A program made the position numbers and the translations under genes. Shown piece by piece: positions 1,035 to 39,300 of a stretch of DNA of 64,000 bases (its first letter is position 1; every line of letters begins with the position of its first letter). Origin of the DNA: Anaerolineae bacterium (GTDB lineage: Bacteria > Chloroflexota > Anaerolineae > Anaerolineales > Anaerolineaceae). A model generated the notes under the pieces. That model had not been told where the DNA came from, did not search any database, and saw only the letters and a list, made by a program, of their open reading frames with translations. The stretch covers positions 1-64,000 of the forward strand of contig JABUFD010000008.1 of NCBI GenBank assembly GCA_013314735.1. The letters are read 5' to 3'.

Positions 1035-1699
1035 TGGATACCGCAGCGGAATTGTTCCGATTGGCGCCGGAGTTCGCCGGCCTTTCTGACGCCACGCTGG
1101 CGCGCCTGGCGCAGGTGCTGCTGCCGTTGCACTGCAGCGCCGGGCAGATCGTGCAGCTGGAAGGCGAAGCCTGCCGCGGCATGTGCTGGGTGGCGCGGGG
1201 CGAGGTGACCGTGTTCCGCACTGCCGCTGACGGCCGCGAGCTGGTGATGGCGCGCCTGCACCGCGGCGGCGCCTTCAACATCGTACCGCCCTTCGAAGAC
1301 CCGCCCATGTGCCGCGCCTCGGTGCGCGCCGCTGCCGAAACCACCCTGTGGCGCCTGCCGCTGGAAGCGATCCCGCCCCTGCTGGCCGCTTGCCCTGATT
1401 TTTCCGCCGCCCTGCTGCGGCGCTTTGCCGCCCAGTTGGGTCACCTCAACCGCCTGGTGGAACAGATCGCCCTGCATTCGGTGCGCGGCCGCCTGGCGCG
1501 CTTCCTGCTCGACCTCGCCGACGGCGTCACACCCGCCCGTGAATACACCCAGGATGAGATCGCCGCCCACATCGGCACCGTGCGTGATATGGTGGGCCGC
1601 ATCCTGCGCAGCTTTGAAGATGCCGGCCTGATCCGCCGCGACCGCAGCCGCATTCTGCTGCGCAACCGCGCCGGGCTGGAGGCCGAAGCCCGTGAATGA
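1035..1699 (+). CDS. Crp/Fnr family transcriptional regulator (cNMP-binding domain + C-terminal HTH)
   Basis: N-terminal cNMP-binding-like region. C-terminal HTH RGRLARFLLDLA...YTQDEIAAHIGTVRDMVGRILRSFEDAGLI typical of the Crp/Fnr family. ATG at 1035 preceded by TACAAT and a GGAAGG RBS; the track ORF from 962 is probably too long. Confidence 0.8.
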
Positions 1700-1909
1700 C
1701 ACAGCAGCCGGGCGTGAATCAATGGAAAAGCACCCCTAAGTTACCCGGTGGGTGTACAATCAGCAGTATGAAGGCGCATCTGCGCTGATCACCTTGAGTG
1801 GTGGATTGGCTGCATCGTGGCAGCTGAATTAATTTGGTTTTCTTGCGACGTCACCAAATCTTCAAATCCAGCACAACTCCCGCAAATTCACAGACAAAGG
1901 AGACCTCAG

Positions 1910-4069
1910 ATGCAGGAATACGTCGGTAAAAGTATTGACCGTTATCGTATCATCGAACGCCAGGGAATGGGAGGGATGGCTGTGGTCTATCATGCCTATG
2001 ATACCCGCCTGGAACGGGATGTGGCTTTGAAGCTCATCCGGACCGAATCCATGGCGCCTGCATTAAAAGAGCAATTGCTCAAGCGGTTTGAACGCGAAGC
2101 CAAAGCCCAGGCGCGGTTTTCGCATCCCAACATCGTGCCGGTGTATGATTACGGCGAGATTGAGGATACGCCGTACCTGGTGATGGAGTATATCCCTGGC
2201 GGAACATTGAAGGAGCGGATTGGAACCCCAATGCCCTGGCGGGAGGCACTGGAGTGGGTCATCCCGGTGGCGGATGCACTTTGTTATGCCCACGAACGCG
2301 GCATCATTCACCGGGATATCAAACCCAGCAATGTGTTAATTGGAGAAAACAACAAACCTGTCCTGACCGATTTCGGGATTGCCAAGCTGCTGGAAACACA
2401 GGAAACAACCCAGTTGACCAGTACCGGGATGGGGGTGGGTACGCCGGAGTATATGGCGCCGGAACAATGGCATGGCAAATCGATGCCCCAAACCGATGTC
2501 TATGCACTGGCTGTGGTCCTGTACGAATTATTGACCGGCGTCAAACCGTATAAAGCGGATACACCGGCGGCTGTGGCGATTTTGCAAGCCACCGAACCAC
2601 TCCCACGCCCATCAAAATATGTTCCCGGCTTGCCGGAAGGCGTGGAGAAATTATTGTATAAAGGGCTGTCTCTCAATCCTGAGGATCGCTATCCCAGCAT
2701 GAAGGCTTTTTGGCAGGCACTGAAGGAACTGTTGTCGGCTGCGCCGACAGTGGCCCATCTGAATGCGTCAGAAGACAGGACAATATTGGCTTCAGCACAA
2801 ACCGGGATGGAATCGCCTACAGCACCGGCCATCTCCCCGGTTCCACTGGTGCCAGCAACCACCACCCAGTCGCTCGCCCCGGCTTCAATGCCGGCAGGGA
2901 AACGCAAAAGCAAGTTTCCTGCCTGGGTTGTCTTTGGCGGAGTGGGCCTGGTGATTGTGCTTGTAATGGTTGGATTGGCTGTCAGTTGGGTGGTTAAAGG
3001 AATGGATGGCAGCGGGCCATTGGCGATGCTGGCAACCAGCACCAGTGCGCCAACCACCAGGCCGACAAAGACAGCTTCACCGGAGGTTGCGGAGGACAAT
3101 GGGGAACCGGTGGTGGAGGAAGAAGAGCCGTCGTCGGCAGCAGAAGAGCCATTCAATATCGGGCTGGTGACGGATGTCGGTGTGGTGAATGATCAATCCT
3201 TCAACCAGAATGCATGGGATGGAGTGCGGATGATTGCGGCAGAACTTGATGCCCATGCTGAGTATCTCGAAACCCAGAATGCCAAAGATTATACCGCCAA
3301 CATCAGGTACTTTGCTGACAATGGGTATGATGTGATTGTTACGGTGGGTTTTAACATGGGGGAGGCCACCCTCGAAGCGGCACTTCAATACCCCGAAATT
3401 ATTTTCATCGGTGTGGACCAGTACCAGACCAACCCGGTGGGCAACCTTGCCGGATTGATGTTCTCGGAATGGGAAGCGGGTTTCCAGGCGGGAGCCCTGG
3501 CAGCGATGCTGACTGAGAGCCAGCTGCTTGCGGGAGTGTACGGCACCGACCTGGTTCCCCCCGTGGTGGCATTTGCCGAAGGCTACGAGGACGGCGCGCA
3601 TTATATTGATCCATCCATCAATGTGATCACCACCTTTCACCCCGGTGGATTTGACACCGGGTTTACCGACCCGGAATGGGGGGCTGCCACCGCCAGGCAG
3701 GCGATCGCACAGGGCGCTGATGTGGTTTTTGCCGCGGGCGGCAAAACCGGCAACGGCGCCTTGATCGAATCAGCCAATTACGAAGGCGTTTTCTGCATCG
3801 GGGTCGACGCGGACCAATGGGGAACCGTGCCCGAGGCGCGTCCGTGCCTGGTGTCTTCCGCATTAAAACGCATTGATCAAGGGGTGTACGACCTGATCAA
3901 AGCGGCCAGGTTTGGCACTTTCCCATCCGGAAACTTCTATGGCACGGTCGGCCTTGCACCGTTTCATAACTTTGAAGTCCGCATCTCGCAGGAAATCCGG
4001 GATACGCTCAGGCAGGTCGAATCCGACCTGCTGAATAATGCCATCCGCTATGAAGACTTCCACGAATGA
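1910..4069 (+). CDS. Ser/Thr protein kinase fused via one TM segment to a BMP/PnrA/Med-family (basic membrane protein, nucleoside-binding type) periplasmic binding domain
   Basis: Kinase motifs: VAVK-like lysine region, HRDIKPSNVL catalytic loop, DFGIAKL, GTPEYMAPE. Hydrophobic segment WVVFGGVGLVIVLVMVGLAVSWVV. C-terminal BMP-like motifs FNIGLVTDVG..NDQSFNQ..VGFNMGEA..IGVDQ..FAAGGKTGNG..IGVDADQ. ATG 1910 with AAAGGAGA RBS; the track ORF begins upstream at 1817. Confidence 0.8.
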   Translation: MQEYVGKSIDRYRIIERQGMGGMAVVYHAYDTRLERDVALKLIRTESMAPALKEQLLKRFEREAKAQARFSHPNIVPVYDYGEIEDTPYLVMEYIPGGTLKERIGTPMPWREALEWVIPVADALCYAHERGIIHRDIKPSNVLIGENNKPVLTDFGIAKLLETQETTQLTSTGMGVGTPEYMAPEQWHGKSMPQTDVYALAVVLYELLTGVKPYKADTPAAVAILQATEPLPRPSKYVPGLPEGVEKLLYKGLSLNPEDRYPSMKAFWQALKELLSAAPTVAHLNASEDRTILASAQTGMESPTAPAISPVPLVPATTTQSLAPASMPAGKRKSKFPAWVVFGGVGLVIVLVMVGLAVSWVVKGMDGSGPLAMLATSTSAPTTRPTKTASPEVAEDNGEPVVEEEEPSSAAEEPFNIGLVTDVGVVNDQSFNQNAWDGVRMIAAELDAHAEYLETQNAKDYTANIRYFADNGYDVIVTVGFNMGEATLEAALQYPEIIFIGVDQYQTNPVGNLAGLMFSEWEAGFQAGALAAMLTESQLLAGVYGTDLVPPVVAFAEGYEDGAHYIDPSINVITTFHPGGFDTGFTDPEWGAATARQAIAQGADVVFAAGGKTGNGALIESANYEGVFCIGVDADQWGTVPEARPCLVSSALKRIDQGVYDLIKAARFGTFPSGNFYGTVGLAPFHNFEVRISQEIRDTLRQVESDLLNNAIRYEDFHE

Positions 4070-4177
4070 TCCCTCCCAGGAGAAATCTTTTCCAGCACTG
4101 AGCGGACACAACTCGTCTGCCTGGTGTACCGCATGGCCCGGCAGCCGGGCGTGAACATGGAGGCCTCCGAACCATGA

Positions 4178-4183
4178 TATAAT
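4178..4183 (+). promoter_or_regulatory. candidate -10 hexamer TATAAT upstream of the NfeD-like gene
   Basis: TATAAT sits about 80 nt upstream of ATG 4266 in the intergenic region after the kinase-BMP gene. Confidence 0.3.
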
Positions 4184-4265
4184 TCCAGTGCAGAAGCCAC
4201 CGGTGAATTGGTTCACGAGGGGACAACGGCGCGGGCTGCTTTGCTATCCTGGAAGGAAGGCTTGT

Positions 4266-4925
4266 ATGACCACATTGGAGTATATCTACCTGGCATGCGC
4301 CATCGCGGGCGCCATTATTTTCATTGTGCGCATGGTGCTGATGTTCGCCGGCGGTTTCGGCGGCGATACTGACCTCGACCTGGATGCCGGCGCAGATGGC
4401 GCCGATCTGGGCGGGATGGAGATGGACCTCGACGGCGCGGATTTTGACGGCGCTGGTATCGAGGAACTGGACCTGGCGGAAGCCAACGGCGCTTCCGGCC
4501 TGGAAGATACCGACCTCAGCTTCCGCTTCCTCTCGGTGCAGGGCATCTCTTCCTTTATTATGATGTTCGGCATTGTCGGGCTGGCGATTGCCAAGGCCCC
4601 CATCCACCCGGTGTTCTCACTCTTTGCCGGAATCGGCGCGGGGCTGTTCACGGTGTGGGTCATCAGCCTGATCTTTGCTGCCGCCACCGGCCTGCAATCG
4701 GACGGGACGATGCACATGAAGTCCGCTGTGGGCGAGATCGGCAAGGTCTACCTGCGCATTCCGGCCGAAGATGCCGGCAAAGTGCAGGTGGTGGTGCAGG
4801 GCGCGCTGCGTGTGCTCGATGCCTTTTCAGCGGACGGCACCCCAATTCCCACCGGTGCCAATGTGAAAGTGGTTGATGTGCGCGACACCGCCCTGGTGGT
4901 GAAAGCGCTCCACCCGGAAGAATAA
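4266..4925 (+). CDS. NfeD-like (YuaF-type) membrane protein with acidic loop and C-terminal OB-fold
   Basis: N-terminal TM, D/E/G-rich low-complexity segment, further TMs, C-terminal beta-rich segment GKVYLRIPAEDAGKVQVVVQGALRVLDAF..ANVKVVDVRDTALVV typical of the short NfeD OB domain. Located upstream of a flotillin gene as in yuaF-floT operons. Start ATG 4266 with GGAAGG RBS. Confidence 0.7.
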   Translation: MTTLEYIYLACAIAGAIIFIVRMVLMFAGGFGGDTDLDLDAGADGADLGGMEMDLDGADFDGAGIEELDLAEANGASGLEDTDLSFRFLSVQGISSFIMMFGIVGLAIAKAPIHPVFSLFAGIGAGLFTVWVISLIFAAATGLQSDGTMHMKSAVGEIGKVYLRIPAEDAGKVQVVVQGALRVLDAFSADGTPIPTGANVKVVDVRDTALVVKALHPEE

Positions 4926-4969
4926 TCCGGCTCTCCGCTGCCGGGAATGAGAAACACATTGAGTTTGAG

Positions 4970-6559
4970 GTGCAAGTGAAACATTCATTACCGCTTCGTT
5001 CTGCCAACCTGTTGTACCTGGTTTCGCTGCTGTTGGTGGTCACCCTCGGTGCGTGGGTGCAGTCTGTCCATTTGTCCTGGGGGCTGATCGCCACCGAGGC
5101 GCTGTTGATCGCCCTGCCGGCGGTGTTGTTCCTGCGCGCGCGCGGCATCCCGCTGCGCGAGGGGCTGGGGCTGCGCCGCATTTCCCTCGCCACCGCCGTG
5201 CTGTGCCTGCTGCTGGGCGCGGCCATGTACCTGGTGGGAATCTTGATCGAAGGGGTGATGGCGCAGCTCAGTGGGCTGCCTTCCGTGCCGCTGGATGACA
5301 GCCTGCTGCCCAAAACTTCAGCGGAAATGGCGCTGTATTTCACCGCCCTGGCCATCAGCGCCCCGCTGGGCGAGGAAATCCTCTTCCGCGGCGCGCTGCA
5401 GGGCGCGTACCAAAGCCGCAAATCGGCGCGCTTTGCCATCACCCTCACCGCGCTGCTGTTCGCTTTCTATCACCTGCGCCTCACCGGCCTGCCGGCGCTG
5501 CTGCCGGTGGCGTTTGTGCTGTCCTTCGTCATGTTCCGCACGCGCTCGCTCTATGCCGGGATGCTGGTGCATTTTGCCAACAACGCCTTTGCCGCGGCGC
5601 AGACGATCACCTTTTTGTCCACTGGCAAGGGATTGCCGTTCCTCTCGCTGTGGTCCGCCCTGGCCGGGCTGGTGGTGGCGGCGGCGGCCCTGGTGCTGCT
5701 GGCGCGTATGCACCCCAAACCGGCGGCGGAACCGCAGGTTGAAGCCGCCTCCCCGGCCGAAACCCGGCCGCGGAAATCCTGGCTGGCCGTCTATTGGCCG
5801 CTGCTCGCGGCGGGGGTGGTGTACCTGGTATTCGCCGGGATGACCCTGGCGCAGGCGCTGATCCCCGGGCTGGTGCCGGTGACCGATGACAGCTACGGCA
5901 GTTCCTTCATCACCGCGCCGGTTGAAAACCGCTATCAGATCCGCAACCGCGGCGGCGAGGTGGTGGGTGAGATGACCTGCACCCTTTCGCCCAACGGGAT
6001 GTACACCCACCTGGCCTGCGACAGCGCCACGCGCGCCTACGAGGTGCGCGTGGACAACAGCACCTATATTGACGGTGGGCACAGCGATACCCTGCAGGTG
6101 AAATGGGAATCCAACGGGATGCAGCTGGTGCAATTTGAATTACAACGGACGCATGCCGATGGCGCCACGATGCGTTCCTACACCGAGGGTGACCGCCTGG
6201 TGACGGAGTTCACCGGCGAAACGCAATCGGTGGAAATTCCGCAATACGCCCTGTTGGAAATGGAATGGTTTTGGCGCGCCACGGTGCTCAAAGCCAACAC
6301 CGGGCAGGCGCTGAAACTGCCGTATGTGTCCTTGCTGGCCTGGGACCCCGAGCAGCAGCAAGCGATCCCCTCGGTGACCGATGAAGTGCTGCGCGTGGCC
6401 GCCGATGAAACCCTCCCCCTGGGCGGCACCGAGATGGTGGTGCGCAAACTGGTGCTGGGCGACCGAACCCTGTGGGTGGCGCGCGATGATGCCACCGCCG
6501 GCATCACCCGCCCGGCGCAGATGGATGACGGCATGATCACCTATACCCTGTTACCGTAA
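4970..6559 (+). CDS. CPBP family intramembrane glutamic endopeptidase (CAAX protease/Abi domain) with ~280-aa C-terminal soluble domain of unknown function
   Basis: Motifs EEILFRGALQ, FAFYHL, HFANN. Multiple TM helices in the first ~250 aa; C-terminal half has no recognisable motifs. GTG start at 4970 is uncertain. Confidence 0.7.
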   Translation: MQVKHSLPLRSANLLYLVSLLLVVTLGAWVQSVHLSWGLIATEALLIALPAVLFLRARGIPLREGLGLRRISLATAVLCLLLGAAMYLVGILIEGVMAQLSGLPSVPLDDSLLPKTSAEMALYFTALAISAPLGEEILFRGALQGAYQSRKSARFAITLTALLFAFYHLRLTGLPALLPVAFVLSFVMFRTRSLYAGMLVHFANNAFAAAQTITFLSTGKGLPFLSLWSALAGLVVAAAALVLLARMHPKPAAEPQVEAASPAETRPRKSWLAVYWPLLAAGVVYLVFAGMTLAQALIPGLVPVTDDSYGSSFITAPVENRYQIRNRGGEVVGEMTCTLSPNGMYTHLACDSATRAYEVRVDNSTYIDGGHSDTLQVKWESNGMQLVQFELQRTHADGATMRSYTEGDRLVTEFTGETQSVEIPQYALLEMEWFWRATVLKANTGQALKLPYVSLLAWDPEQQQAIPSVTDEVLRVAADETLPLGGTEMVVRKLVLGDRTLWVARDDATAGITRPAQMDDGMITYTLLP

Positions 6560-6643
6560 CCAACAGGATGCCGGGCAGCCTGCCCGCACCCTGACAAACC
6601 CGGCGGAACCCCGTTCCGCCCCATGTTGAGAAAGGAAATTTGA

Positions 6644-8050
6644 ATGGAAGGTTTATTGACAATCGCATTGGTCGCATTTATTGTGATCATCTTTTTCACC
6701 CTGCTGTTCCTGGCCAGCCGCTTCCGCCGCTGCCCCTCGGACAAGATCCTGGTGGTGTACGGCAAGGTGGAAAAAGGCCGTTCCAGCCGCTGTATGCACG
6801 GCGGCGGGGCTTTCATCTGGCCGCTGGTGCAGGATTACGCCTATATGAGCCTGACCCCGATGACGATCAGCATCCCGCTGGAAGGCGCGCTCTCGCTGCA
6901 GAACATCCGCATCAACGTGCCCAGCACCTTCACGGTCGGCATCAGCACCCAGCCGGAGATCATGATGAACGCCGCGGAACGGTTGCTGGGCATCAACCAG
7001 CAGGCGATCGAGGACATGGCCAAGGAGATCATCTTCGGCCAGCTGCGCCTCACCGTGGCTTCGCTGACGATCGAGCAGATCAACCAGGACCGCGAAAGCT
7101 TCCTGGATTCGATCCGCCAGAACGTGGAACCCGAACTGAACAAGATCGGCCTGTACCTGATCAACGTGAACATCACCGACATCACCGATTCCTCCAACTA
7201 CATCGACAGCATCGGCAAGAAAGCCGCCTCCGAAGCGGTCAACAAAGCCCGTGTGGATGTGGCTGAGCAGGAAAAACTGGGTGCGGTGGGTGAATCGCTG
7301 GCGGTGCGCGAAAAGGACATCAGCGTTGCCGAAAACGTGGCAGCTTCCGTCAACGGGCAGAAGAAAGCCGAAACCGAGCGGCGCGTGTACGTGCAGAACC
7401 GCGAAGCGGAAGCCGTGCAGGGCGAAAACCTGGCGAAAGCCAACATCGCCAAGGCCGAAGCCGAACTGGCAATCCAGCAGGCCGAAGCGCGCCAGCGCGC
7501 CGAGATCGCGCGGCGCAACGCCGAAGTGGAGATCCAGAAGGCGCAGTACCTGGCCGAACAGCAGCGCCTGCGCGCCGAGCAGATTGTGCAGCAGGAAATT
7601 GAGAAGCAGCAGGTGGAAATTTCCGCCGAAGCTGAAGCCGAACGTATCCGCCGCATCGCCAAGGGTGAAGCCGATGGCGTGCTGCTGAAGTACCAGGCCG
7701 AAGCCGAAGGCCTCAAGCGCCTGCTGGCGAGCAAGGCTGCCGGCTACAAGGAACTGGTGGCCGGCGCGGGCAATGATCCCCAGGCCGCCGCCACCCTGTT
7801 GCTGTTGGAAAAAATGGCCGACCTGGTCAAGTACCAGACCGAAGCGATCGGCAAATTGCAGATCGACAAGATCACGGTATGGGACAACGGCGGCAGCGGC
7901 GAAGGTTCCGCCACCTCGAACTTCATCGCCAACCTGTTCAAGAGCCTGCCGCCCCTGCACGAGATTTCGAAGATGGCCGGTGTGGAATTGCCCGCCTACC
8001 TCGGCAGCGTGGTGAGCGAAGGCGAAACCGAACCCGCCGAAGAAGCGTAG
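6644..8050 (+). CDS. flotillin-like protein (SPFH/Band 7 domain + EA-rich coiled-coil flotillin domain; FloT/YuaG-like)
   Basis: N-terminal TM, SPFH region, long E/A/Q/R-rich coiled coil (AEAELAIQQAEARQRAEIARRNAEVEIQKAQYLAEQQR). RBS GAAAGGAAA before ATG 6644. Confidence 0.85.
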   Translation: MEGLLTIALVAFIVIIFFTLLFLASRFRRCPSDKILVVYGKVEKGRSSRCMHGGGAFIWPLVQDYAYMSLTPMTISIPLEGALSLQNIRINVPSTFTVGISTQPEIMMNAAERLLGINQQAIEDMAKEIIFGQLRLTVASLTIEQINQDRESFLDSIRQNVEPELNKIGLYLINVNITDITDSSNYIDSIGKKAASEAVNKARVDVAEQEKLGAVGESLAVREKDISVAENVAASVNGQKKAETERRVYVQNREAEAVQGENLAKANIAKAEAELAIQQAEARQRAEIARRNAEVEIQKAQYLAEQQRLRAEQIVQQEIEKQQVEISAEAEAERIRRIAKGEADGVLLKYQAEAEGLKRLLASKAAGYKELVAGAGNDPQAAATLLLLEKMADLVKYQTEAIGKLQIDKITVWDNGGSGEGSATSNFIANLFKSLPPLHEISKMAGVELPAYLGSVVSEGETEPAEEA

Positions 8051-8413: not shown

Positions 8414-10072
8414 ATGAACCAGTTGTATTACGGCGACAATCTCACCATCCTGCGGGAGTACATCCCGGCGGAATCCGTCGACCTGATCTACCTCGACCCG
8501 CCCTTTAATTCCAACCGCAATTACAATATCCTGTTCAAGGAAGAAAGCGGGGAACAAAGCGCGGCGTAGTTGACCGCGTTTGAAGATACCTGGCACTGGG
8601 ACATCAACACCGAAGGCCTCTACCAGGAGATGGTCACCTCGGCCGACATGCCGCCGCAGGTGAGCAGCATGATCGCCGCGCTGCGCAATTTTATTGGCAC
8701 CAACCCGATGATGGCGTACCTGGTGAACATGAGCGTGCGCCTGGTGGAACTGCACCGCGTGCTCAAACCCAGCGGCTCGCTCTACCTGCACTGCGACCCC
8801 ACCGCCAGCCATTACTTGAAGGTGGTGCTGGATGCCATTTTTGGGTTTGAGAATTACCGGAACGAAATTGTGTGGAAACGCCAATCCGCGCACAGCGATG
8901 CACGATATAAATTCTCTGACGTGGCTGATATTATCTTCTTTTATGTTAAATCGGGCAAAGCGTTATTCACACCACAATATACAGAACATGACCCGGAGTA
9001 TATTAAGAAATTCTACCGTTATGATGACATGGATGGGCGAGGGCCATATCGCCTTGCTGACATGGCATCACCAAACCCACGCCCAAATATGATGTACGAG
9101 TGGAAGGGATACGGTTATCCGAGCAAAGGATGGCGGTACCAAAGGGATACCATGCAGAAGCTGGATGAGGATGGTCGCATATATTACCCCATAAAAACCG
9201 ATGGAAGCCCAGATTATACAAAGCGATTGGCATTGAAAAGGTACCTTTCAGAACAGGAAGGCTCAATAGTAACTAATATATGGGATGATATCCAGCCATT
9301 GCACGGTGCTACAGCCGAACGCCTTGGTTACCCGACGCAAAAACCGCAGGCGCTGCTGGAGCGCATCATCAGCGCCTCCTCCAACCCCGGCGATGTCGTG
9401 CTGGATCCGTTCTGCGGCTGCGGCACCGCCGTGGCCGCGGCGCAGGCCCTCGGGCGGCGCTGGATCGGGATCGACATCACCCACCTTTCGATTGCCCTGA
9501 TCAAATACCGCATCGAAGACGCCTTCCCCGAGGCCAAATTTGAGGTGCTCGGCGAACCGCAATCGGTGCAGGACGCGCGCTACCTGGCCGAAAACAGCCG
9601 CCACCAGTTTGAATGGTGGGCGCTTTCGCTGGTGCGGGCGCGCCCCGCCGGGGGCGACGGCGGCAAGACCGGCAAAAAAGGCGCCGACCGCGGCATTGAC
9701 GGCATCATCAACTTCATCGACGGCGCCAAAGGTGCGCCGAAACAGATCATCGTGCAGGTGAAATCCGGGCACGTCTCCTCTGCCCACATCCGCGACCTGG
9801 TGGGCACGCTCGAACGCACCAAGGCCGCCATCGGCGTGTACCTCACCCTCGAAGAACCGACCGCCCCCATGCGCAAAGAGGCCGCCGAAGCCGGCTTTTA
9901 CCATTCCGACCTGTGGAACCGCGACTACCCGCGCGTGCAAATCTACACCATCGAAGAACTGCTCTCCGGCGCCGCGGTGCAGATGCCGCCCACCAGCGCC
10001 AACGTCACCTTCCAGCGCGCCCAGCGCCAGAAAAGCGAAGACAGCACCCGCCAGCCGGATTTGTTCGGTTAA
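8414..10072 (+). pseudogene. beta-class N6-adenine/N4-cytosine DNA methyltransferase fused to a C-terminal Mrr-type (PD-(D/E)xK) restriction endonuclease-like domain; interrupted by an in-frame TAG at 8567-8569
   Basis: N-terminal DLIYLDPPFNSNRNYN (motif IV) lies in the same frame as downstream ..AFEDTWHW.., ending in DPFCGCGT (motif I). These are separated only by an amber codon at the position where homologues have Q. C-terminal DRGIDGI..IIVQVKSG matches the Mrr catalytic motif. TATAAT at 8358-8363 and a GGGGAGGAA RBS precede ATG 8414. Confidence 0.7.
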
Positions 10073-13569: not shown

Positions 13570-14820
13570 ATGACCACCACCACTCACCTGTCACAGCGCC
13601 AACCGGCGCAGATCAAAGCCTCGCTCTATTACGGCATCATGTGGGGCATGATGGCGCTTTCCACCACCTTCATCTCGATCGACCTCAACCACCGCGGCGT
13701 GACCGAAACCCAGTGGGGCATCATCTCGGCCCTGCGCGCGCTGATGACCTTCCTCGCCGCGCCGATCATCACCCGCCAGGCCGACCTGCGCCGCACGCGC
13801 GTGCGCTGGCTGCGCTGGATCATGATCCTGCAGGCGGTTGTGATGCTGATGTTCATGATCCCGCGCCACTTCGGTGCCTTCCTGGTGCTGTCGCTGCTGT
13901 CCGCCGTCATCGGCTCGGCCGTGATGCCCCTCGGCGATGGGGTGATCGTGCGCATGGCGCAGAAACACAATTTAGAATTCGGGCGGCTGCGCCTGTGGGG
14001 CTCATTGGGGTTTGCCGTGTTCGGCACCTTCGGCGGCTGGCTGTGGAGCGAGGTCGGCTATTCGTTCATCTACATCGCCGGCTTCCTCGGCTACCTGGTG
14101 GTGGCATTCTTCGCCGGCAACCTCGAAGAACCGGCCGTGCACGAGGCGGAGATCGAAATTCCCGTGCCCGAAGAAGAGGGCCTGCCGCTGCCCAAACCGA
14201 AAACGATCATTCAACTGCTGTTGGGCGATACCGTGCTGCTGCTGTTCCTGGTGGCGGCCTTCCTGCGCTCCTCTTCTGAACTGATGTTCTTTTCCTTCTC
14301 CGGCATCTACATCGACGCCCTCACCGGCAACGCCTTTTATGCCGGGCTGATCAACGGCGGTTCGGCCATCCTGGAAATCCCGGTGATGATCAACGCCCAG
14401 CGCCTGATCCAGCGTTTCGGGCTGGCACCGCTGGTGGTGGTGGGGTTCTTTGTCCAGGCGGCAGGCCTGGCGGTTTTCGCGCTTTCCAGCAGCCCGTGGC
14501 TGATGTATGCCGGCTCAACGCTGCGCAACATGGGCTTCGCGCTGTATTTTGTCGCGGCGGTGCAGTTCATCGACCGGCGCGCCGGCAAGAACGATGCCAC
14601 CAGCTACCAGGGCCTGCTGAGCGGGATCAGCTGGGGGCTGGCGCCGCTGCTGGCCACCCCGCTGGCCGGGATTGTCTACCAGCAGTGGAGCGCGCAATGG
14701 GTCTTCCTCCTCGCCACCCTGATCTGCACCTTCAGCGCGGTGGTGATGATCCCGGTGGCCGTGCTCTTCCGCCGCGAAGAGAAACAGCGTGCCCACCAGG
14801 CGGAAACCTCCCGCTTGTAA
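13570..14820 (+). CDS. MFS-type transporter (12 predicted TM helices)
   Basis: Hydrophobic periodicity throughout, basic residues in short loops between TM helices (e.g. ..TRQADLRRTRVRW..), 416 aa. TACAAT at 13533 upstream of ATG 13570. Confidence 0.75.
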   Translation: MTTTTHLSQRQPAQIKASLYYGIMWGMMALSTTFISIDLNHRGVTETQWGIISALRALMTFLAAPIITRQADLRRTRVRWLRWIMILQAVVMLMFMIPRHFGAFLVLSLLSAVIGSAVMPLGDGVIVRMAQKHNLEFGRLRLWGSLGFAVFGTFGGWLWSEVGYSFIYIAGFLGYLVVAFFAGNLEEPAVHEAEIEIPVPEEEGLPLPKPKTIIQLLLGDTVLLLFLVAAFLRSSSELMFFSFSGIYIDALTGNAFYAGLINGGSAILEIPVMINAQRLIQRFGLAPLVVVGFFVQAAGLAVFALSSSPWLMYAGSTLRNMGFALYFVAAVQFIDRRAGKNDATSYQGLLSGISWGLAPLLATPLAGIVYQQWSAQWVFLLATLICTFSAVVMIPVAVLFRREEKQRAHQAETSRL

Positions 14821-14880: not shown

Positions 14881-15723
14881 TCAACCTGCCGCCCGGCCGC
14901 GGTTCCCTTCCAGCCATCCCACGGCGAAATCGACCAGGGCACGCTGGCGCAGCAGGCGGGTTTCCGCCATGCCAACCTGCCCGATGATGACCTCCGCGGG
15001 GCAGGCCGCCTCAAACGCGGCGCCCAGGGCGGGGAAGTCATCGCTGCCGTAATCGAGGTCATCGTACCACACCCATTGGCGCGCGCCTTCCACCAGCAGC
15101 GGGGCGCCTTCGCGCACCATTGCCTTGCCGGGAAAATCGGCGCGGTTTTCCGCCAGGTGGAGCGAGGTGTTGTTGCCGTGGCCCACCCCCAGCAACAGCA
15201 CCCACCCATCCAGGTCATACAGCCGTGCCAGGGGGGAGCCTTCGCCCATGGCCGGGGTGAGGGCATGGTTGGCGGTGAGGAATTCCGCCTGCGGGCCGCG
15301 CGCGCAGAATGAAACCTGCGGGTGCAGGCTGCGCCGCGTGCCATCCTGCTTGCGGAAGCACTCCGCGGCGGCGCCCATCCCCCGCGTGGGGGTCAGGTCG
15401 GGGGAAAAGGGCGGCATGCTGGCACGGATCGTATCCCACCACGCCGGCGGGACGGGCGGGTGCTGCCAGTTGGCGGGGTTGGAAAGGTCGCCGCTGTGGG
15501 CGGGCATCATCAGGGTGCCGGCCGGGCCGAGGGCATCTTCCAGCGCCAGCACCAGGGCGGGGGCGCTGCCGCACACCCACCCCAGCCGGCTGAGGGCGCT
15601 GTGCACCAGCAGCACCATGCCGGGGCGCACGCCGAGTGCCGCCAGGTCGGCGGTGATCTGCTGTTGGGTCATCATCCGGCTGGAAAGCACGGCGCGTTCT
15701 TCGCCGCGGATATCATGGGTCAT
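14881..15723 (-). CDS. AAC(3)-family aminoglycoside N3-acetyltransferase-like protein
   Basis: ITADLAALGVRPGMVLLVHSALSRLG..GTLMMP..NWQHPP.. and the C-terminal conserved blocks match the AAC(3) antibiotic N-acetyltransferase family. Start at ATG 15723 or the internal MMTQQQ Met; the track ORF extension to 16272 crosses the repeat element and is rejected. Confidence 0.75.
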   Translation of the reverse strand: MTHDIRGEERAVLSSRMMTQQQITADLAALGVRPGMVLLVHSALSRLGWVCGSAPALVLALEDALGPAGTLMMPAHSGDLSNPANWQHPPVPPAWWDTIRASMPPFSPDLTPTRGMGAAAECFRKQDGTRRSLHPQVSFCARGPQAEFLTANHALTPAMGEGSPLARLYDLDGWVLLLGVGHGNNTSLHLAENRADFPGKAMVREGAPLLVEGARQWVWYDDLDYGSDDFPALGAAFEAACPAEVIIGQVGMAETRLLRQRALVDFAVGWLEGNRGRAAG

Positions 15724-15794
15724 GGCGGGTTCCTCCGGGGGGTCTGGTTTTCTATCCATTGTACCGCTGTTTGCGCGGCGGAACGCCTCGGTGG

Positions 15795-16030
15795 TGAAGT
15801 TTGGGAATGGCAAAACATACACACCCGAACCTCCATCCCGAAGGGAGGTCTCCATCCCGAAGGGAGGTCTCCATCCCGAAGGGAGGTCTCCATCCCGAAG
15901 GGAGGTCTCCATCCCGAAGGGAGGGACATGCGCCGCTTGCACTCGTGACCTGACTGCCTCCCTCCGGGATGGGATGGCGAAGGCATGTTGGAAACGGCAG
16001 CCCGGAACGTCAAAGTCACGCCGCGGTGCC
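15795..16030. repeat. solo copy of the composite hairpin repeat (H family) with 5 tandem 19-bp arm repeats (cctccatcccgaagggaggt) x5
   Basis: Five tandem copies at 15830-15928, then gggacatgcgccgcttgcactcgtgacctgactgcctccctccgggatgggatggcg and a tail ggcccggaacgtcaaagtcacgccgcggtg that match units of the arrays at 51.96 and 56.12 kb. Confidence 0.75.
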
Positions 16031-16105
16031 CACCCCGCCTGCAACCCGCAGGGCGGGTTTGCCGTATCATTAATAGAGCTTTGTCGCAATCGAAAGGAAA
16101 CCTGC

Positions 16106-18022
16106 ATGAACCACACAACCCGAACGCAAACCAGGGGAAGGCTGATGCTGGCGCTCTTGATCGCCGCCCTGTGCCTGGCCGCCCCGCTGCCGGTACGCGC
16201 CCAATCCGCCGCCGACCTCGACGACCCGCTGGCAATGGCCGCTTTCCTCGAAGGCGCGTTTGCCGCCGCCATGCTGGAACACCATGTACCCGGCGCGGTG
16301 GCGGTGGTGGTGAAGGACGGCGCGGTGCTGCACGCCGCCGGTTACGGCTATGCCGACCTGGAAACACCCACCCCGGTCGACCCGGCCACCACCCTCTTCC
16401 GCCCCGGTTCGGTCTCCAAGCTGTTCACCTGGACCGCCGTGATGCAGATGGTGGAAGCCGGCCAGCTTGATCTCGATGCCGACATCAACCGCTATCTCGA
16501 TTTTGAGATCCCCTCCACCTTCCCCCAGCCGATCACCCTGCGCCACCTGCTGACCCACACCCCCGGGTTCGAGGACCAGGGCCAGGGGCTGTTCAAGCTC
16601 GATCCCGCCGAAATGATCTCCCTGGGCGAGTACCTGAAACGTGCCATCCCGGCACGGGTGTACCCGCCGGGTGAGATCGCGGCCTATTCCAACTACGGCT
16701 CAATCCTGGCCGGCTACATCGTGGAGCGCGTGAGCGGGATGCCGTTCACGGCGTATGTGGAAACCCACATCCTTGCCCCGCTGGGGATGGAACACGCCAC
16801 CTTCCAGCAGCCCCTGCCGCCCAACCTCCAGGCCGATATGGCGGGCGGGTACAACTACCTGAACGGTGAATACCTGCGGGGGTCGTTTGAACTGGTGGTC
16901 GGCTCTCCCGCCGGCGGGTTGAGTGCTTCGGGGCTGGATATGGCGCGCTTCATGATCGCCCATCTGCAACACGGTGAATACAACGGCGCGCGTATTTTGC
17001 AGGAAGACACCGCGCAGCAGATGCACAGTCCGCTCTACAGCCCTGACCCGCGCATCGACTGCATGGCGCACGGCTTTTTCTACCAGCACATCAACGGGCA
17101 GTACACGCTCTCGCACGGCGGTGACACCATGCTGTTCCATTCCAGCCTGAGGCTGCTGCCGGAACACAACCTGGGGATTTTCATCTCCACCAATGGCACC
17201 AACGGTTCGATGGTGGTGGAAACCGTAACCAAAGCCTTCATGGACCGCTACTTCCCGGTGGCGGTAGCCGAACTGACCCCCACTGCCGATTTCGCCGAAC
17301 GCGCGGCGCTGTACCGCGGCAATTATATTTCCGCCCGCAGCAATGTGCATGGACTGGAAAAAATACTTAACCTGATGACCCCAACGTCGGTCAGCATTAC
17401 CCCGGACAACCGCGTGGTATTGAACTATGCCGGGCAGGCGACTTCCTTCATCGAGGTGGAACCGGGCCTGCTGGTCGATCCGCTCGATCCGGATAACCGG
17501 ATTGTGATGCATGCGTTGAACGGGCGCGTACGCCTCTCACCGCCCATGCCGTTTGAATTCCTCAAAATCCACTGGTACGAAACCAGCGCCTTCCAGGGCG
17601 TGCTCTTCGTTGGCGGGCTGCTGATGTTTCTCGGGGCCGGTGTGGGATTCATCAGCGCGTTCCTGCGCCGCCGCAAGGCACACGAACCGGTTCCCGCGGG
17701 GTCACGCCTGGCACGCTGGACGGCGGCGCTGTTCGGGATGGCCCTGCTGCTGTTCCTGGCGGGATTCCTGGTGGTGTTCTCCGATATCGACCCCGCGCTG
17801 GGTGTTCCCACCGTGTTCTTTGCCGACCCCGGCACCCTGCCCATGCTGCTGGTCATCCTGCCGCTGGTGCTGGTTGCGCTGGGCGCGCTGATGGTGGTGT
17901 TTGCTGCCGCGGCATGGCGCAAGCGCTGGTGGAGCGCCGGTGGGCGCGCCTGCTACAGCCTGCTGGCGCTGTGGGCGCTGGGGCTGGTGTGGGCACTGGC
18001 GTACTGGAACCTGCTCTTCTGA
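16106..18022 (+). CDS. serine hydrolase of the beta-lactamase/PBP (class C-like) family with signal peptide and C-terminal multi-TM region
   Basis: Signal peptide MLALLIAALCLAAPLPVRAQS. S-x-x-K motif at FRPGSVSKLF; YSNYG (Y-x-N-like) and HGG (KTG-like) elements. Four hydrophobic helices in the last ~130 aa. ATG 16106 with AAAGGAAA RBS. Confidence 0.75.
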   Translation: MNHTTRTQTRGRLMLALLIAALCLAAPLPVRAQSAADLDDPLAMAAFLEGAFAAAMLEHHVPGAVAVVVKDGAVLHAAGYGYADLETPTPVDPATTLFRPGSVSKLFTWTAVMQMVEAGQLDLDADINRYLDFEIPSTFPQPITLRHLLTHTPGFEDQGQGLFKLDPAEMISLGEYLKRAIPARVYPPGEIAAYSNYGSILAGYIVERVSGMPFTAYVETHILAPLGMEHATFQQPLPPNLQADMAGGYNYLNGEYLRGSFELVVGSPAGGLSASGLDMARFMIAHLQHGEYNGARILQEDTAQQMHSPLYSPDPRIDCMAHGFFYQHINGQYTLSHGGDTMLFHSSLRLLPEHNLGIFISTNGTNGSMVVETVTKAFMDRYFPVAVAELTPTADFAERAALYRGNYISARSNVHGLEKILNLMTPTSVSITPDNRVVLNYAGQATSFIEVEPGLLVDPLDPDNRIVMHALNGRVRLSPPMPFEFLKIHWYETSAFQGVLFVGGLLMFLGAGVGFISAFLRRRKAHEPVPAGSRLARWTAALFGMALLLFLAGFLVVFSDIDPALGVPTVFFADPGTLPMLLVILPLVLVALGALMVVFAAAAWRKRWWSAGGRACYSLLALWALGLVWALAYWNLLF

Positions 18023-20748: not shown

Positions 20749-22011
20749 ATGAGTGAATATATTGATAACGTCAGCCAGCGCAAGAAGATGCTCAAAGAGG
20801 CCCTCGCCGGCCTGCACCAGGGCAAGAGCGTGGAGGAAGTACAGGCGATCTTCGCCGAACTGGTGAAGGTGGCCACCTACGATGATATTTCCGAAGCCGA
20901 ACAAATGCTGATCGCGGAGGGACTGCCCGCCGCGGAGATCCAGAAACTGTGCGACCTGCACGTGGCCGTGGTGCGCGACAGCCTGGATGCCCAGCCCGAC
21001 CCCGATTCCATTCCCGGCCACCCGATCCACACCCTGCGCGCCGAGAACGAGATCGCCGAGACCATGCTGCAGCAATTGGAAGGGCTGCTGGTGGTGCCCG
21101 GTGCCGAGGCGCTGGAACTGGTGCGCGACCGCCTGGCGCAGCTGGTGCAGTTCGAGCGCCACTACCAGCGCAAGGAAAACCTGCTGTTCCCCTACCTGGA
21201 GCGCTACGGCTTCACCGGCCCTTCGCAGGTGATGTGGGGCATCCATGATGAGATCCGCGCCGCCTGGAAACAACTCACCGCCCTGCTGGCAGACCTCGGC
21301 CAGCCGCAGGATTGGACCGCCAGACTCAAGCAGCTGCGCGCCGTGTTCGAGCCGATGCGCACCGCGATGCAGGAGATGTTCTACAAGGAAGAGAAGATCC
21401 TCTTTCCCACCGCGATGGAACGCCTGAGCGAAGCCGACTGGGGAGAAATTCGCCGCCAGGAGGCAGAGCTGGGCTATTTCGTGGTGCGCCCCGGCCTCAC
21501 CTGGCAGCCGCCCGCCCCCGCCGCCCCCAAAGCGGAACCCACGCCGCAGGCCGCGCCAGCCTTCAGCGCCCCCGGGATCGGGGTGATGCTCTCACTCGCC
21601 ACCGGCGTCCTCAGCCCGGAACAGCTCAACCTGATGCTGACCCACCTGCCGTTCGACATCACCTTCGTCGATGAAAATGACGAGGTGCGCTACTTCACCC
21701 AGGGCAAGGAGCGCATCTTCGAGCGCCAGCCCGCCATCATCGGGCGCAAGGTGCAGCTGTGCCACCCGCCGCAAAGCATGGACAAGGTGCAGCGCATCCT
21801 CGATGATTTCCGTGCCGGTACACGTGATGTGGCGGAATTCTGGATCAAACTCAACCTGCCACAGGGTGAGTCGATGATGGAAAAATTCGTCCACATCCGC
21901 TACTTCGCCCTGCGCGATGCCGCCGGCACCTACCGCGGCACGATCGAAGTCACCCAGGACGTGGCCCCCATCCACGCCCTGCAAGGCGAAAAACGCCTGC
22001 TGGATGATTGA
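20749..22011 (+). CDS. DUF438-family protein (hemerythrin-like N-terminal region + C-terminal PAS-like domain)
   Basis: Architecture and C-terminal block DITFVDENDEVRYFTQGKERIFER..HPPQSMDKVQRILDDFRAG..FWIKL resemble DUF438/PAS proteins that usually follow small redox proteins. Confidence 0.6.
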   Translation: MSEYIDNVSQRKKMLKEALAGLHQGKSVEEVQAIFAELVKVATYDDISEAEQMLIAEGLPAAEIQKLCDLHVAVVRDSLDAQPDPDSIPGHPIHTLRAENEIAETMLQQLEGLLVVPGAEALELVRDRLAQLVQFERHYQRKENLLFPYLERYGFTGPSQVMWGIHDEIRAAWKQLTALLADLGQPQDWTARLKQLRAVFEPMRTAMQEMFYKEEKILFPTAMERLSEADWGEIRRQEAELGYFVVRPGLTWQPPAPAAPKAEPTPQAAPAFSAPGIGVMLSLATGVLSPEQLNLMLTHLPFDITFVDENDEVRYFTQGKERIFERQPAIIGRKVQLCHPPQSMDKVQRILDDFRAGTRDVAEFWIKLNLPQGESMMEKFVHIRYFALRDAAGTYRGTIEVTQDVAPIHALQGEKRLLDD

Positions 22012-26146: not shown

Positions 26147-26269
26147 TGTCTATAAAAATGGCTACAATCATGGATAGTATTCTCTGCAGCCATCGGCGAT
26201 TGATCATGAATGTGATCAATTTTCCTGAACAGGCGGGGAATCATCGAAGAGGATCGAGGAGTGTACAGC
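26147..26269 (+). promoter_or_regulatory. promoter (TACAAT at 26163) plus ~100-nt leader, identical to the leader of the downstream paralog
   Basis: 26163-26272 is base-for-base identical to 29483-29592. Contains a uORF (MDSILCSHRRLIMNVINFPEQAGNHRRGS..) overlapping the kinase start out of frame. Confidence 0.5.
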
Positions 26270-29200: not shown

Positions 29201-29359
29201 ATTGGCAATATCGTGTTTTTGGACCTGACAACCAATATAATACTGGGTGTGTTGCGGCAACATTTCGCCTCGATCCGGTGGTTGACGTTCAGTGTTGATG
29301 ACCACGAGTTGATCTCATTCGGTGATGACGGCATAACCAACATTTGGGGAATCCAATAA
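26270..29359 (+). CDS. Ser/Thr protein kinase - Pro-rich linker - TM - C-terminal beta-propeller (WD40/PQQ-like repeats)
   Basis: GVGGMGAVYRGKD, VAIKRL, HRDVKPGNILF, DFGIVKL, GTPTYMAPE. Hydrophobic helix WVWVLGGLGVLLFLGVALVLLI. Repeated ~40-aa blocks with SPDG/APDGS..L..G..DG.. motifs. GAGGAG RBS 9 nt before ATG 26270. Confidence 0.85.
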   Translation: MPYMVDHRYLVGEQLGVGGMGAVYRGKDTRLQRDVAIKRLQIFGSQADVDQFMKRFEREAIAMAQLQHPNIVGVLDFGQDDQGIFLILQYMPGGSLKDRMTAPFNPQSAAALLAPIADALHYVHDQGMIHRDVKPGNILFDARGNPMLADFGIVKLVEDTPGATLTGTGTAIGTPTYMAPELIGGEFDHRVDQYALGIIFYEMVTGKAPFTGRTPMEAMVAHKYEPLPDPRLLCPGLPQDAWDLIVRVLAKDPEQRYEDSGQFSAALRRLGQPPTPTPQPQPKPGEEPTSLVEDELPFNLPAKTPQPPAPGMQAVSEEDETQGVITPGKGTPVPPPPFVGNETPGGAPLSAPSLVRDEALKPPAKKKRAWVWVLGGLGVLLFLGVALVLLITMLTKGIMEPAATQVAQTHLETKVPTITSRPQPTVTPTLPSQIDNNTASALQVKTRIGKGNANIALYSPDGSLLVIGNSSGFYLLGADTGKELSSVQDIYVTSLAIAPSGNALATLDQDGYLTLWDIQNKFAPAILQQYPAAAPGASLRAATFSPDGNSLAYADYDTIFFYSFESGTVTGQVEWTDSNISQLQFNPDGQSIYGAANQLGLIGLWDMNTLSLTTTFPVGFVFNFALAPDGSLLAVYDSNEGTLKFFKPANASQFMEPIQTNGYVSDLAFSADGASLYGAINGNTISRWILVDDRSQLTYPLNNDQAYLFDLAPDGSSLAWTGFGAVGVFDFDTEQAKFDTDQFDYTGVLVEGWVNGEVLYVNDDHNGSVILRNTSGIAKQHLDSTAITTWLDSVTVSSNGQYLAARSYVNGAIVLLVWDLNTKQLLKQVPLADWVGDFRFSDDSQFLTVVNGMTATVYRTDTWGIHYGYTVTDAALTIAKYYPEFDLLVLAGYGRPLLINPLSGYTVELPLNVPAEGVFDLELSRDGSLLFLVSGKSLLIWNIPDQTFVLEAYDLLPNNAVELALNTSETLLAIGDNIGNIVFLDLTTNIILGVLRQHFASIRWLTFSVDDHELISFGDDGITNIWGIQ

Positions 29360-29466: not shown

Positions 29467-29589
29467 TGTCATCTGAAAGGGTTACAATCATGGATAGTAT
29501 TCTCTGCAGCCATCGGCGATTGATCATGAATGTGATCAATTTTCCTGAACAGGCGGGGAATCATCGAAGAGGATCGAGGAGTGTACAGC
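29467..29589 (+). promoter_or_regulatory. duplicate promoter/leader (identical to 26147-26269)
   Basis: Identical 110-bp stretch including TACAATCATGGATAG and the RBS. Confidence 0.5.
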
Positions 29590-32808: not shown

Positions 32809-32829
32809 ATGATGTGGATACGGGGCGGG

Positions 32830-34623: not shown

Positions 34624-34714
34624 CCTCCAAATGGAACAATTTGTAGCGAAATTGTATCATGAAGGGCAATGCGCGGGGAAGTTAAGATCACCCTTCGACA
34701 GCACTTCGGCAGCA

Positions 34715-39150: not shown

Positions 39151-39300
39151 GCCAATGGCCATGCGCACAACCAGCAACGCTCCTGCCAATTGCTTGCACG
39201 CGGCTGTGCTTTGCGCTATACTATTCACCAGTAAACCCGCCAAGCCTCTGCCCCATTGGGGCATGCGCCACTGTGGTGGGTGTTTCTTTTTGGGGGCAGC

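Follow-up and report, generated by a model that had tools for sequence, protein, structure and literature searches.

Which signal does a bacterial Ser/Thr kinase receive when its extracytoplasmic part resembles the substrate-binding protein of a nucleoside importer? The question is raised by a gene at positions 1910..4069 (+ strand) of the first 64,000 nucleotides of contig JABUFD010000008.1 (GenBank assembly GCA_013314735.1), from a bacterium of the class Anaerolineae within the Chloroflexota; this whole 64,000-nucleotide stretch is referred to below as the window. For most bacterial Hanks-type kinases the signal is unknown, the PASTA kinases, with cell-wall fragments, being the main exception (PMC6213207). 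The 719-residue product joins an N-terminal Hanks-type kinase, a membrane helix and a C-terminal Bmp/PnrA-family domain, and is read here, with a probability of roughly 0.6 given the sequence and structural models, as a receptor kinase whose activity would respond to external nucleosides. The parts of this reading differ in strength. The predicted architecture is close to certain, a nucleoside is the probable ligand judging by the predicted pocket, and control of kinase output by that ligand is put at even odds or slightly better.

Domain architecture and membrane topology

A preliminary description of this DNA had proposed a Ser/Thr kinase with a Bmp/PnrA-family extracytoplasmic domain, and this was borne out: the Pfam profiles Pkinase and Bmp both match far above their cut-offs, with one helix between them. 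The cytoplasmic Hanks-type Ser/Thr kinase domain occupies aa 1-279 (1910..2746, + strand), where Pkinase (PF00069) matches aa 13-264 with an E value of 1.3e-45 and 156.3 bits (cut-off 31.7) and the structural model has a high predicted local distance difference test score (pLDDT). The catalytic motifs are all present, namely the G-loop GMGGMAVV (19-26), K41, the alphaC Glu E63, HRD at 134-136 within HRDIKPSN (134-141), DFG (154-156) and APE (183-185). The Thr-rich activation segment running from DFG to APE (aa 154-185; 2369..2464, + strand), delimited by motif scan and by alignment to PknB, is disordered in the model at residues 160-174.

The best solved relatives of the kinase half are Mycobacterium tuberculosis PknB (E 2e-54), then PknE, StkP and PknA. 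In the alignment to M. tuberculosis PknB, T170 and T172 fall on T171 and T173, the activation-loop autophosphorylation sites of that kinase, while R11, L34 and D80 fall on R10, L33 and D76, which make up its N-lobe back-to-back dimer interface. Across 29 fused homologues L34 and D80 never vary, and R11 and T170 hardly do. Judged by its sequence, the kinase half lacks nothing expected of an active PknB-like kinase and is predicted to be catalytically competent. The Pfam scan of the 719-aa protein found no PASTA domain, and the protein falls outside the PknB/Stk1 PASTA equivalog NF033483, which it matches only over aa 10-393 and with 327.6 bits against a cut-off of 450.

A reading as a defence kinase was set aside, since the PADLOC PD-T4-6 and mad6 matches are common to all three Hanks kinases of the window and probably reflect generic kinase similarity. 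The PD-T4-6 models match mostly the kinase domain, with up to 300 bits, some reaching about aa 409 and none extending into the Bmp domain, and they fit the window's two WD40 kinases just as well; the MAD6 (MADS antiphage) equivalog reaches 177, its cut-off being 460. That the gene is the third Hanks kinase in the window, as had been noted earlier, agrees with tblastn and Pfam, which find exactly three.

The kinase domain is followed by a disordered juxtamembrane linker rich in Ala, Pro, Ser and Thr, recognised by pLDDT and composition, that ends in KRKSK (aa 280-335; 2747..2914, + strand). A single transmembrane helix comes next (aa 336-362; 2915..2995, + strand), picked out by the hydropathy scan as the sole Kyte-Doolittle peak above 1.6 in the protein and modelled as a helix at 340-362. 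Beyond it lies an extracytoplasmic disordered tether, acidic and PT-rich (aa 363-410; 2996..3139, + strand), defined by pLDDT and by alignments to three homologues (P0037, P0121 and P0266). In the full-length AlphaFold model, pLDDT is below 50 for both aa 280-337 and aa 363-410. Because KRKSK precedes the membrane helix on the cytoplasmic side, the Bmp domain is placed outside the cell, and the predicted topology is single-pass, N-in and C-out, with the kinase inside and the Bmp domain outside. The stretch linking the membrane helix to the Bmp domain contains no Cys, and the protein also lacks the signal peptide and lipobox of a lipoprotein.

The extent of the Bmp domain required correction. 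The preliminary description had assigned to it the C-terminal 400 residues, whereas the fold spans about 305 (411-716), the remainder being membrane helix and disordered linker. The interval given there for the domain, residues ~430-750, is in a numbering that runs from a GTG at 1817 and not from the ATG at 1910.

The Bmp ectodomain and its predicted pocket

The extracytoplasmic Bmp/PnrA-type ligand-binding domain, of the type I binding-protein fold (aa 411-716; 3140..4057, + strand), is defined by Pfam, AF2 and Foldseek. The Pfam family Bmp (PF02608, 'ABC transporter substrate-binding protein PnrA-like') matches aa 420-675 with an E value of 8.8e-41 and 140.3 bits (cut-off 24.1), and an AF2 model of the ectodomain built from 51 relatives reaches a pLDDT of 91.2 and a predicted template-modelling score (pTM) of 0.89. 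In a Foldseek comparison with the PDB, ranks 1-22 are all Bmp-family chains (E 2.6e-23 to 1e-13, template-modelling score (TM) 0.76-0.82), generic sugar-binding proteins appearing only from rank 23 with a TM of about 0.6. The first eleven matches are nucleoside complexes, headed by 7X0R, which is Lbp with guanosine; after 7X0R come nucleoside-bound pneumococcal PnrA, Treponema pallidum PnrA and BmpD. A search of the PDB by sequence gives an order that agrees, with Clostridium thermocellum Lbp first (7X0R, E 4.8e-42) and T. pallidum PnrA/TmpC second (2.7e-32), then pneumococcal PnrA (~4e-25), Borrelia BmpA and BmpD, Med and AtzT; the solved Med homologue 2HQB has an E value of 3.6e-11 by sequence and Foldseek rank 19. 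The modelled fold is specific to the Bmp family and not a generic periplasmic binding fold.

In nucleoside binders of this family the pocket consists of two stacking Phe residues, an Asp and an Asn near the base, and an Asp/Asp/Lys set on the ribose (PMC7093131, PMC13325309); Phe-to-Ala mutations abolished binding, and ribose alone failed to bind (PMC13325309). Lbp was co-purified and crystallised with endogenous guanosine (PMC9601137), and the known ligands of the Bmp family are almost all purine or pyrimidine compounds (PMC10443332). All 10 core pocket positions are conserved in the protein described here: D422, F431, N432, D503, F555, F585, T613/G614, V632, D633 and K653, which correspond in that order to D27, F36, N37, D108, F161, F186, T214/G215, V237, D238 and K260 of T. 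pallidum PnrA. By this alignment the predicted ribonucleoside pocket is complete, with two stacking Phe, Asp/Asn at the base and Asp-Asp-Lys at the ribose. Neither a generic binding fold nor a loss of pocket residues, the two outcomes that would have undone the original assignment, was found.

The pocket is also kept in other fusions of this kind. Among 34 fused homologues, the equivalents of D238 and K260 are present in every one, those of F186 and D108 in 33 each and that of F36 in 31. This bears on the idea that the Bmp part is a non-binding module for scaffolding, localisation or dimerisation, attached to a kinase that is constitutive or internally regulated. The fusion is a singleton, with no orthologue above 50% full-length identity among 15 billion proteins, and it has several changes at otherwise conserved positions; Med, a member of the same family, is reportedly a co-factor of a kinase and not part of a transporter. 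Such an idea would accommodate all three. However, every core pocket residue is retained, in this protein and across many divergent fused proteins, and retention across divergent fusions therefore argues for purifying selection on ligand binding, which makes a mere scaffold very improbable.

Comparison with importer proteins gives a measure of divergence outside the core. In 176 alignment columns, 51 stand-alone relatives show a conservation of 90% or more; the protein keeps the consensus in 154 of these (87.5%). Its 22 departures affect, among others, the lipobox Cys and an N-terminal Cys-x6-Cys pair that is kept in 96% of stand-alone relatives. They also touch the base-recognition loop, D422-VGVVNDQS-F431-N432 (3173..3205, + strand), which alignment to PnrA, Lbp and pneumococcal PnrA equates with PnrA residues 27-37 and which is taken up below.

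Relatives and probable mosaic origin

Kinase-Bmp fusions recur in the lineage. Roughly 45 other such proteins were found, mostly in Anaerolineae metagenomes. The full-length kinase+Bmp relatives are 37-49% identical, nearly all of them from metagenomes and from metagenome-assembled genomes (MAGs) annotated as Anaerolineae or Chloroflexota. Both parts of the fusion are already named in automated JGI annotations. An exhaustive HMMER search over 1.84 billion cluster representatives returned nothing closer and added 12 further kinase+Bmp representatives. Some of these relatives hold extra ANF_receptor/Peripla_BP_6, SBP_bac_3 or Peripla_BP_1/4 domains, and Anaerolineae-lineage kinases are also found fused to SBP_bac_3, ANF_receptor/Peripla_BP_6, SBP_bac_1/8 and Phosphonate-bd ectodomains. 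The early impression that this sensor is unusual for a Hanks kinase was thus right about the Bmp ectodomain, which is real, but overstated its rarity, given dozens of kinase+Bmp proteins in Anaerolineae.

The top match in the representative library, P0241, was considered as a closer fused relative and rejected, as it is actually a kinase-less Bmp-Bmp-SBP_bac_3 protein. The same library contains a set of kinase-less polyproteins that string together several binding-protein domains (P0353, P0283, P0241, P0245 and P0269), with combinations such as Peripla_BP_6 + OpuAC + Bmp + SBP_bac_5 (1470 aa), Bmp + SBP_bac_3 + Phosphonate-bd, and tandem Bmp-Bmp.

The two halves of the protein have different closest relatives. 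In a search with the Bmp domain, the best 120 matches are stand-alone Chloroflexota lipoproteins of ~340 aa that are 62-69% identical to it, and identity to the Bmp domains of other kinase fusions is at most 54%. The stand-alone relatives carry classical lipoprotein signal peptides with a lipobox (for example LFLAAC|GQ), and the two that were examined both lie in operons of the form Bmp / BPD_transp_2 x2 / double ABC_tran. With one stand-alone protein, P0121, the ectodomain forms a gap-free alignment at 68% identity over residues 24-337 of P0121, its mature part directly past the lipobox. For the kinase half, the top 40 relatives are 65-71.5% identical, and none has a Bmp domain; they carry FGE-sulfatase or other ectodomains. 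Kinases that are fused to Bmp are 52-65% identical to this one. The alignment to P0037 spans aa 1-388, membrane helix included.

Because the ectodomain is closest to stand-alone lipoproteins and the kinase is closest to differently fused kinases, the gene is, as far as these alignments indicate, a mosaic, predicted to change over within the extracytoplasmic tether, somewhere around aa 389-403. We infer that the kinase, juxtamembrane and membrane parts came from an Anaerolineae lineage that usually carries FGE-sulfatase-type ectodomains, and that the ectodomain would have been copied, relatively recently, from the lipoprotein that serves a Bmp-type nucleoside ABC importer. The membrane anchor of the kinase would then have replaced the signal peptide and lipobox of the copied lipoprotein.

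That both halves have closer relatives among unfused or differently fused proteins than among proteins of the same architecture is also what an artefact would produce, if separate kinase and binding-protein genes had been joined by a sequencing or assembly error or in a chimeric contig. A chimeric assembly was rejected on the continuous reading frame, on the absence of the signal peptide and lipobox Cys expected of a separate binding-protein gene, and on base composition, since GC content and GC content at third codon positions (GC3) are alike in the two halves (GC3 0.61 and 0.64). With the same architecture also recurring in many independent assemblies, an artefact has next to no probability. 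The genes on either side (962-1699 and 4188-8050) have GC3 values of 0.74-0.83, above that of the kinase-Bmp gene. Because the GC3 values of the halves are alike yet lower than those of the flanking genes, there is a hint that the already fused gene may have been acquired horizontally as a unit.

One homologue offers a view of the module without a kinase. P0266 (locus L084, 319-1692) is a complete gene for a 457-aa protein in which a zinc ribbon at the N-terminus is followed by a single membrane helix and a Bmp domain. It has in common with the protein described here the end of the helix, the tether sequence GPLAMLAT, the loss of the N-terminal Cys pair and the C-terminal IRYEDFH. The tether of the present protein thus holds GPLAMLAT as well as the predicted mosaic junction. 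Since helix end, tether and C-terminus are shared with P0266, the membrane-anchored Bmp module may predate the attachment of the kinase head, and P0266 suggests a class of Bmp proteins that are anchored in the membrane and whose cytoplasmic heads can be exchanged.

Neighbour-joining trees of Bmp domains (500 bootstraps) were computed for a first and a wider data set. In the first, the domain falls inside the stand-alone clade, apart from the main fused clade, in 499/500 bootstraps; in the wider set, it groups with stand-alone proteins in a fusion-free clade in 323/500 replicates. Taken with the incongruent kinase relationships, the Bmp trees make it likely that this fusion was assembled independently of other kinase-Bmp proteins. 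A second kinase lineage, 'k2' (P0246, P0248, P0252 and P0276), has kinase domains 35-40% identical and Bmp ectodomains 49-54% identical to those of the present protein, the latter branching near the stand-alone clade, which suggests at least three separate kinase-Bmp associations.

Proposed function and alternatives

In the proposed mechanism, the flexible tether of ~50 aa would hold the Bmp/PnrA 'Venus-flytrap' on the outer side of the membrane, where a nucleoside, most likely a purine (guanosine, inosine or adenosine), would bind in the cleft and close the two lobes. Closure would alter the association or orientation of receptor molecules, and the altered self-association would change trans-autophosphorylation of T170/T172, as proposed for PASTA kinases (PMC6213207), after which the kinase would phosphorylate cytoplasmic targets. 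The output would report the external supply of nucleosides, whether as a salvageable nutrient, as a sign of lysed neighbours or as a product of extracellular nucleic-acid turnover. If so, bacteria would monitor external nucleosides through Ser/Thr phosphorylation. The protein itself is one of the few bacterial Ser/Thr kinases whose signal can be predicted, having a well-understood type of pocket and a specific predicted ligand class. It would also be a tractable model for the transfer of a signal from a flytrap domain across the membrane to a Ser/Thr kinase, and its mosaic origin would illustrate the birth of a receptor, in which the binding protein of an importer is lifted onto a kinase.

Several observations count against a nucleoside-responsive receptor kinase, or against parts of the case for it. 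With regard to the ligand, three positions of the base-recognition loop that hardly vary among the closest stand-alone relatives are changed (E425V, D427N and K429Q), and a second cluster of changes lies beside the ribose-binding K653 (M652L, L654R, T656D and P657Q), so the ligand may differ or the affinity may be altered; the Bmp family, moreover, also holds binders of riboflavin, purine bases and B6. With regard to signalling, it is hard to see by which route a closure signal from a monomeric flytrap on a long disordered tether would reach the kinase. With regard to genomic context, none of the seven flanking products recurs at 78 related loci searched by tblastn, and the large open reading frames (ORFs) of the window include no PP2C phosphatase, FHA protein, nucleoside-metabolism enzyme or Bmp-type permease. 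Lastly, support for independent capture of the ectodomain falls to 65% with the wider taxon sample, in which the domain groups first with another kinase fusion in 47/500 replicates (9%).

The divergence of the specificity loop and of the stretch past K653 from the closest stand-alone relatives leads directly to the suggestion that a different small ligand is sensed, such as a purine base, riboflavin, a B6 vitamer, a modified nucleoside or a cytokinin-like compound. There is precedent for this in the family, whose structures include AtzT (adenine/guanine) and RfuA (riboflavin) and for which NCBIfam has a B6 subfamily. Against it, the protein keeps what nucleoside binders have, namely both stacking Phe and the residues that contact the ribose (Asp503, Asp633 and Lys653), and AtzT and RfuA rank below every nucleoside binder. 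Membership of the B6-binding subfamily was rejected, its model scoring 58 bits against a cut-off of 400. The divergent positions themselves resemble guanosine-bound Lbp, with VNDxS in the loop and KR[IV]D past the Lys (GVNDGS and MKRVDN in Lbp), and also PnrA (VKRAD). Because of this resemblance to Lbp and PnrA, the changes are compatible with nucleoside binding, with a base preference that may have shifted, and a ligand of another kind is considered unlikely.

A receptor that works alone must also be set against a sensor coupled to transport, in which the tethered Bmp domain would dock onto the permeases of a nucleoside ABC importer and the kinase would report or regulate transport. In its favour, the ectodomain shows 62-69% identity to true importer binding proteins and keeps 87.5% of the positions highly conserved in them, the geometry of its membrane tether resembles that of a lipoprotein tether, and signalling by binding proteins via membrane partners is well documented (PMC8050422). 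However, neither the large ORFs of the window nor the surroundings of the fused homologues examined contain a BPD_transp_2 permease or a Bmp-type ABC ATPase, and the protein has lost the N-terminal Cys pair that 96% of stand-alone relatives keep. Among the large ORFs of the window, to which the scan was confined, there is no operon of two BPD_transp_2 genes with a tandem ABC ATPase, the window has no second Bmp domain, and the annotated neighbourhoods of three fused homologues are mutually unrelated and lack permeases. The gene looks like a solitary receptor, and coupling to a transporter is as unlikely as a ligand of another kind. A broader version is a shade less probable still: Anaerolineae would repeatedly place different heads, from unrelated Hanks kinase lineages to a zinc ribbon, on anchored copies of importer binding proteins of their own, and the captured Bmp domain would still dock the importer, so that phosphorylation reports nucleoside flux. 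Were this true, the protein would be a Hanks-kinase version of a 'trigger transporter'.

Comparison with known systems

As a sensor, the ectodomain belongs with PnrA/TmpC of T. pallidum and Streptococcus pneumoniae, BmpD/BmpA of Borrelia and Lbp of C. thermocellum, with which it shares Pfam family, pocket residues and fold (TM 0.79-0.82). Unlike these PnrA-type importer lipoproteins, the protein has no signal peptide, lipobox or adjacent permease and ATPase, and is fused through a helix to a Ser/Thr kinase. The ectodomain is predicted from its sequence to work like a PnrA domain, while its context does not suggest a component of an importer. A signalling role for a member of this family is not without parallel, as Med, a Bmp-family lipoprotein of Bacillus subtilis, reportedly signals with the histidine kinase KinD and does not act in transport, going by the title of a 2011 study by Banse et al.; Med, however, is a separate lipoprotein, and its partner is a histidine kinase.

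As a kinase, the protein belongs to the same subfamily as the PASTA kinases PknB, PrkC and StkP, keeps their N-lobe interface residues and activation-loop Thr pair, and follows the same plan of an N-terminal kinase, a disordered juxtamembrane region, one helix and an extracellular sensor. It differs in the sensor, which has no PASTA domains and is predicted to recognise a small molecule, whereas theirs binds peptidoglycan fragments.

Fusions of kinases to binding proteins were catalogued in 2005 (PMC1262709, Krupa and Srinivasan), the examples being a Streptomyces coelicolor kinase with a Glu/Gln solute-binding domain and a Nostoc kinase with an ANF-receptor domain. The present protein has their layout of N-terminal kinase, membrane segment and C-terminal extracytoplasmic binding-protein fold. 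Its ectodomain, in contrast, is Bmp, with no match to SBP_bac_3 or ANF_receptor, and its predicted ligands are nucleosides and not amino acids. The literature searched yielded no experimental characterisation of kinase fusions with binding-protein ectodomains and no paper on a kinase-Bmp fusion, an absence that is not proof that none exists. The fusion of a kinase to a binding protein is therefore already known and not a new principle, and the design recurs within the lineage.

The only characterised Ser/Thr kinase stimulated by a binding protein is the GlnH/GlnX/PknG system (PMC8050422, a 2021 review). In mycobacteria and corynebacteria, this system likewise uses an ABC-type binding protein to control a Ser/Thr kinase according to an external nutrient, but divides the task among three proteins, namely a free binding protein, a membrane adaptor with four-helix-bundle domains and a soluble kinase, where the present receptor is one polypeptide. 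The binding-protein family also differs, and no glnH- or glnX-like genes neighbour the kinase-Bmp gene.

The gene and its neighbourhood

The uninterrupted + strand ORF in the ORF list runs over 1817..4069 and opens with the GTG at 1817. The complete coding sequence of the receptor kinase is placed at 1910..4069 (+ strand; 719 aa plus a TGA stop at 4067-4069) from the ORF list, the ribosome-binding site and homologue N-termini. A Shine-Dalgarno sequence, AAGGAG, can be read directly at 1897..1902 (+ strand), 7 nucleotides before the ATG at 1910, and the N-terminus of the closest homologues coincides with the Met encoded there (MQEYIGKQIDRY... in P0037); because of this upstream AAGGAG and the equivalent Met in homologues, the ATG is a credible start. 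A scan of 1600-4400 found no promoter-like sites on the + strand. Terminator-like matches on that strand lie upstream at 1806-1827, twice within the coding sequence and once within the next gene, and do not delimit the kinase-Bmp gene.

Upstream, 962-1699 encodes a Crp/Fnr-type regulator. The genes downstream encode an NfeD-like protein (4188-4925), a 529-aa CPBP (Rce1-like) protease whose long C-terminal extension matches nothing in Pfam (4970-6559) and a flotillin with Band_7 and Flot domains (6644-8050).

Other features of the window

The other two Hanks kinases, identified by Pfam and tblastn, are tandem paralogues of ~1035 aa each with C-terminal WD40/PD40 beta-propellers (26261-29359 and 29581-32697), and their GC3 differs markedly (0.58 versus 0.77). 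They are followed by a 617-aa ORF with no Pfam match at 32809-34662.

A type I restriction-modification locus occupies 35211-44139, with HsdM at 35211-37259, HsdS at 39256-40629 and HsdR at 41095-44139, and a gene for a GmrSD-type endonuclease (37252-39150) inserted between hsdM and hsdS. GC content falls to 0.475 at 38-40 kb. In a further ORF, at 8570-10072, an N6/N4 DNA methylase is joined at its C-terminal end to an endonuclease domain of the Mrr-like / NA-iREase1 type.

An MFS_1_like transporter at 13570-14820, about 10 kb from the kinase gene, has a weak Nuc_H_symport match (E 1.2e-10). At 14881-18022, two ORFs overlap on opposite strands, one matching an aminoglycoside 3-N-acetyltransferase (minus strand, aa 221-454) and the other a beta-lactamase-family protein (plus strand, aa 378-694); the true genes there are probably shorter and divergent. 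The window also encodes a DUF438-hemerythrin-PAS_10 protein (20749-22011) and a 1088-aa HEAT/Arm-repeat protein (44897-48166), the latter in a stretch with a GC content of 0.67-0.69.

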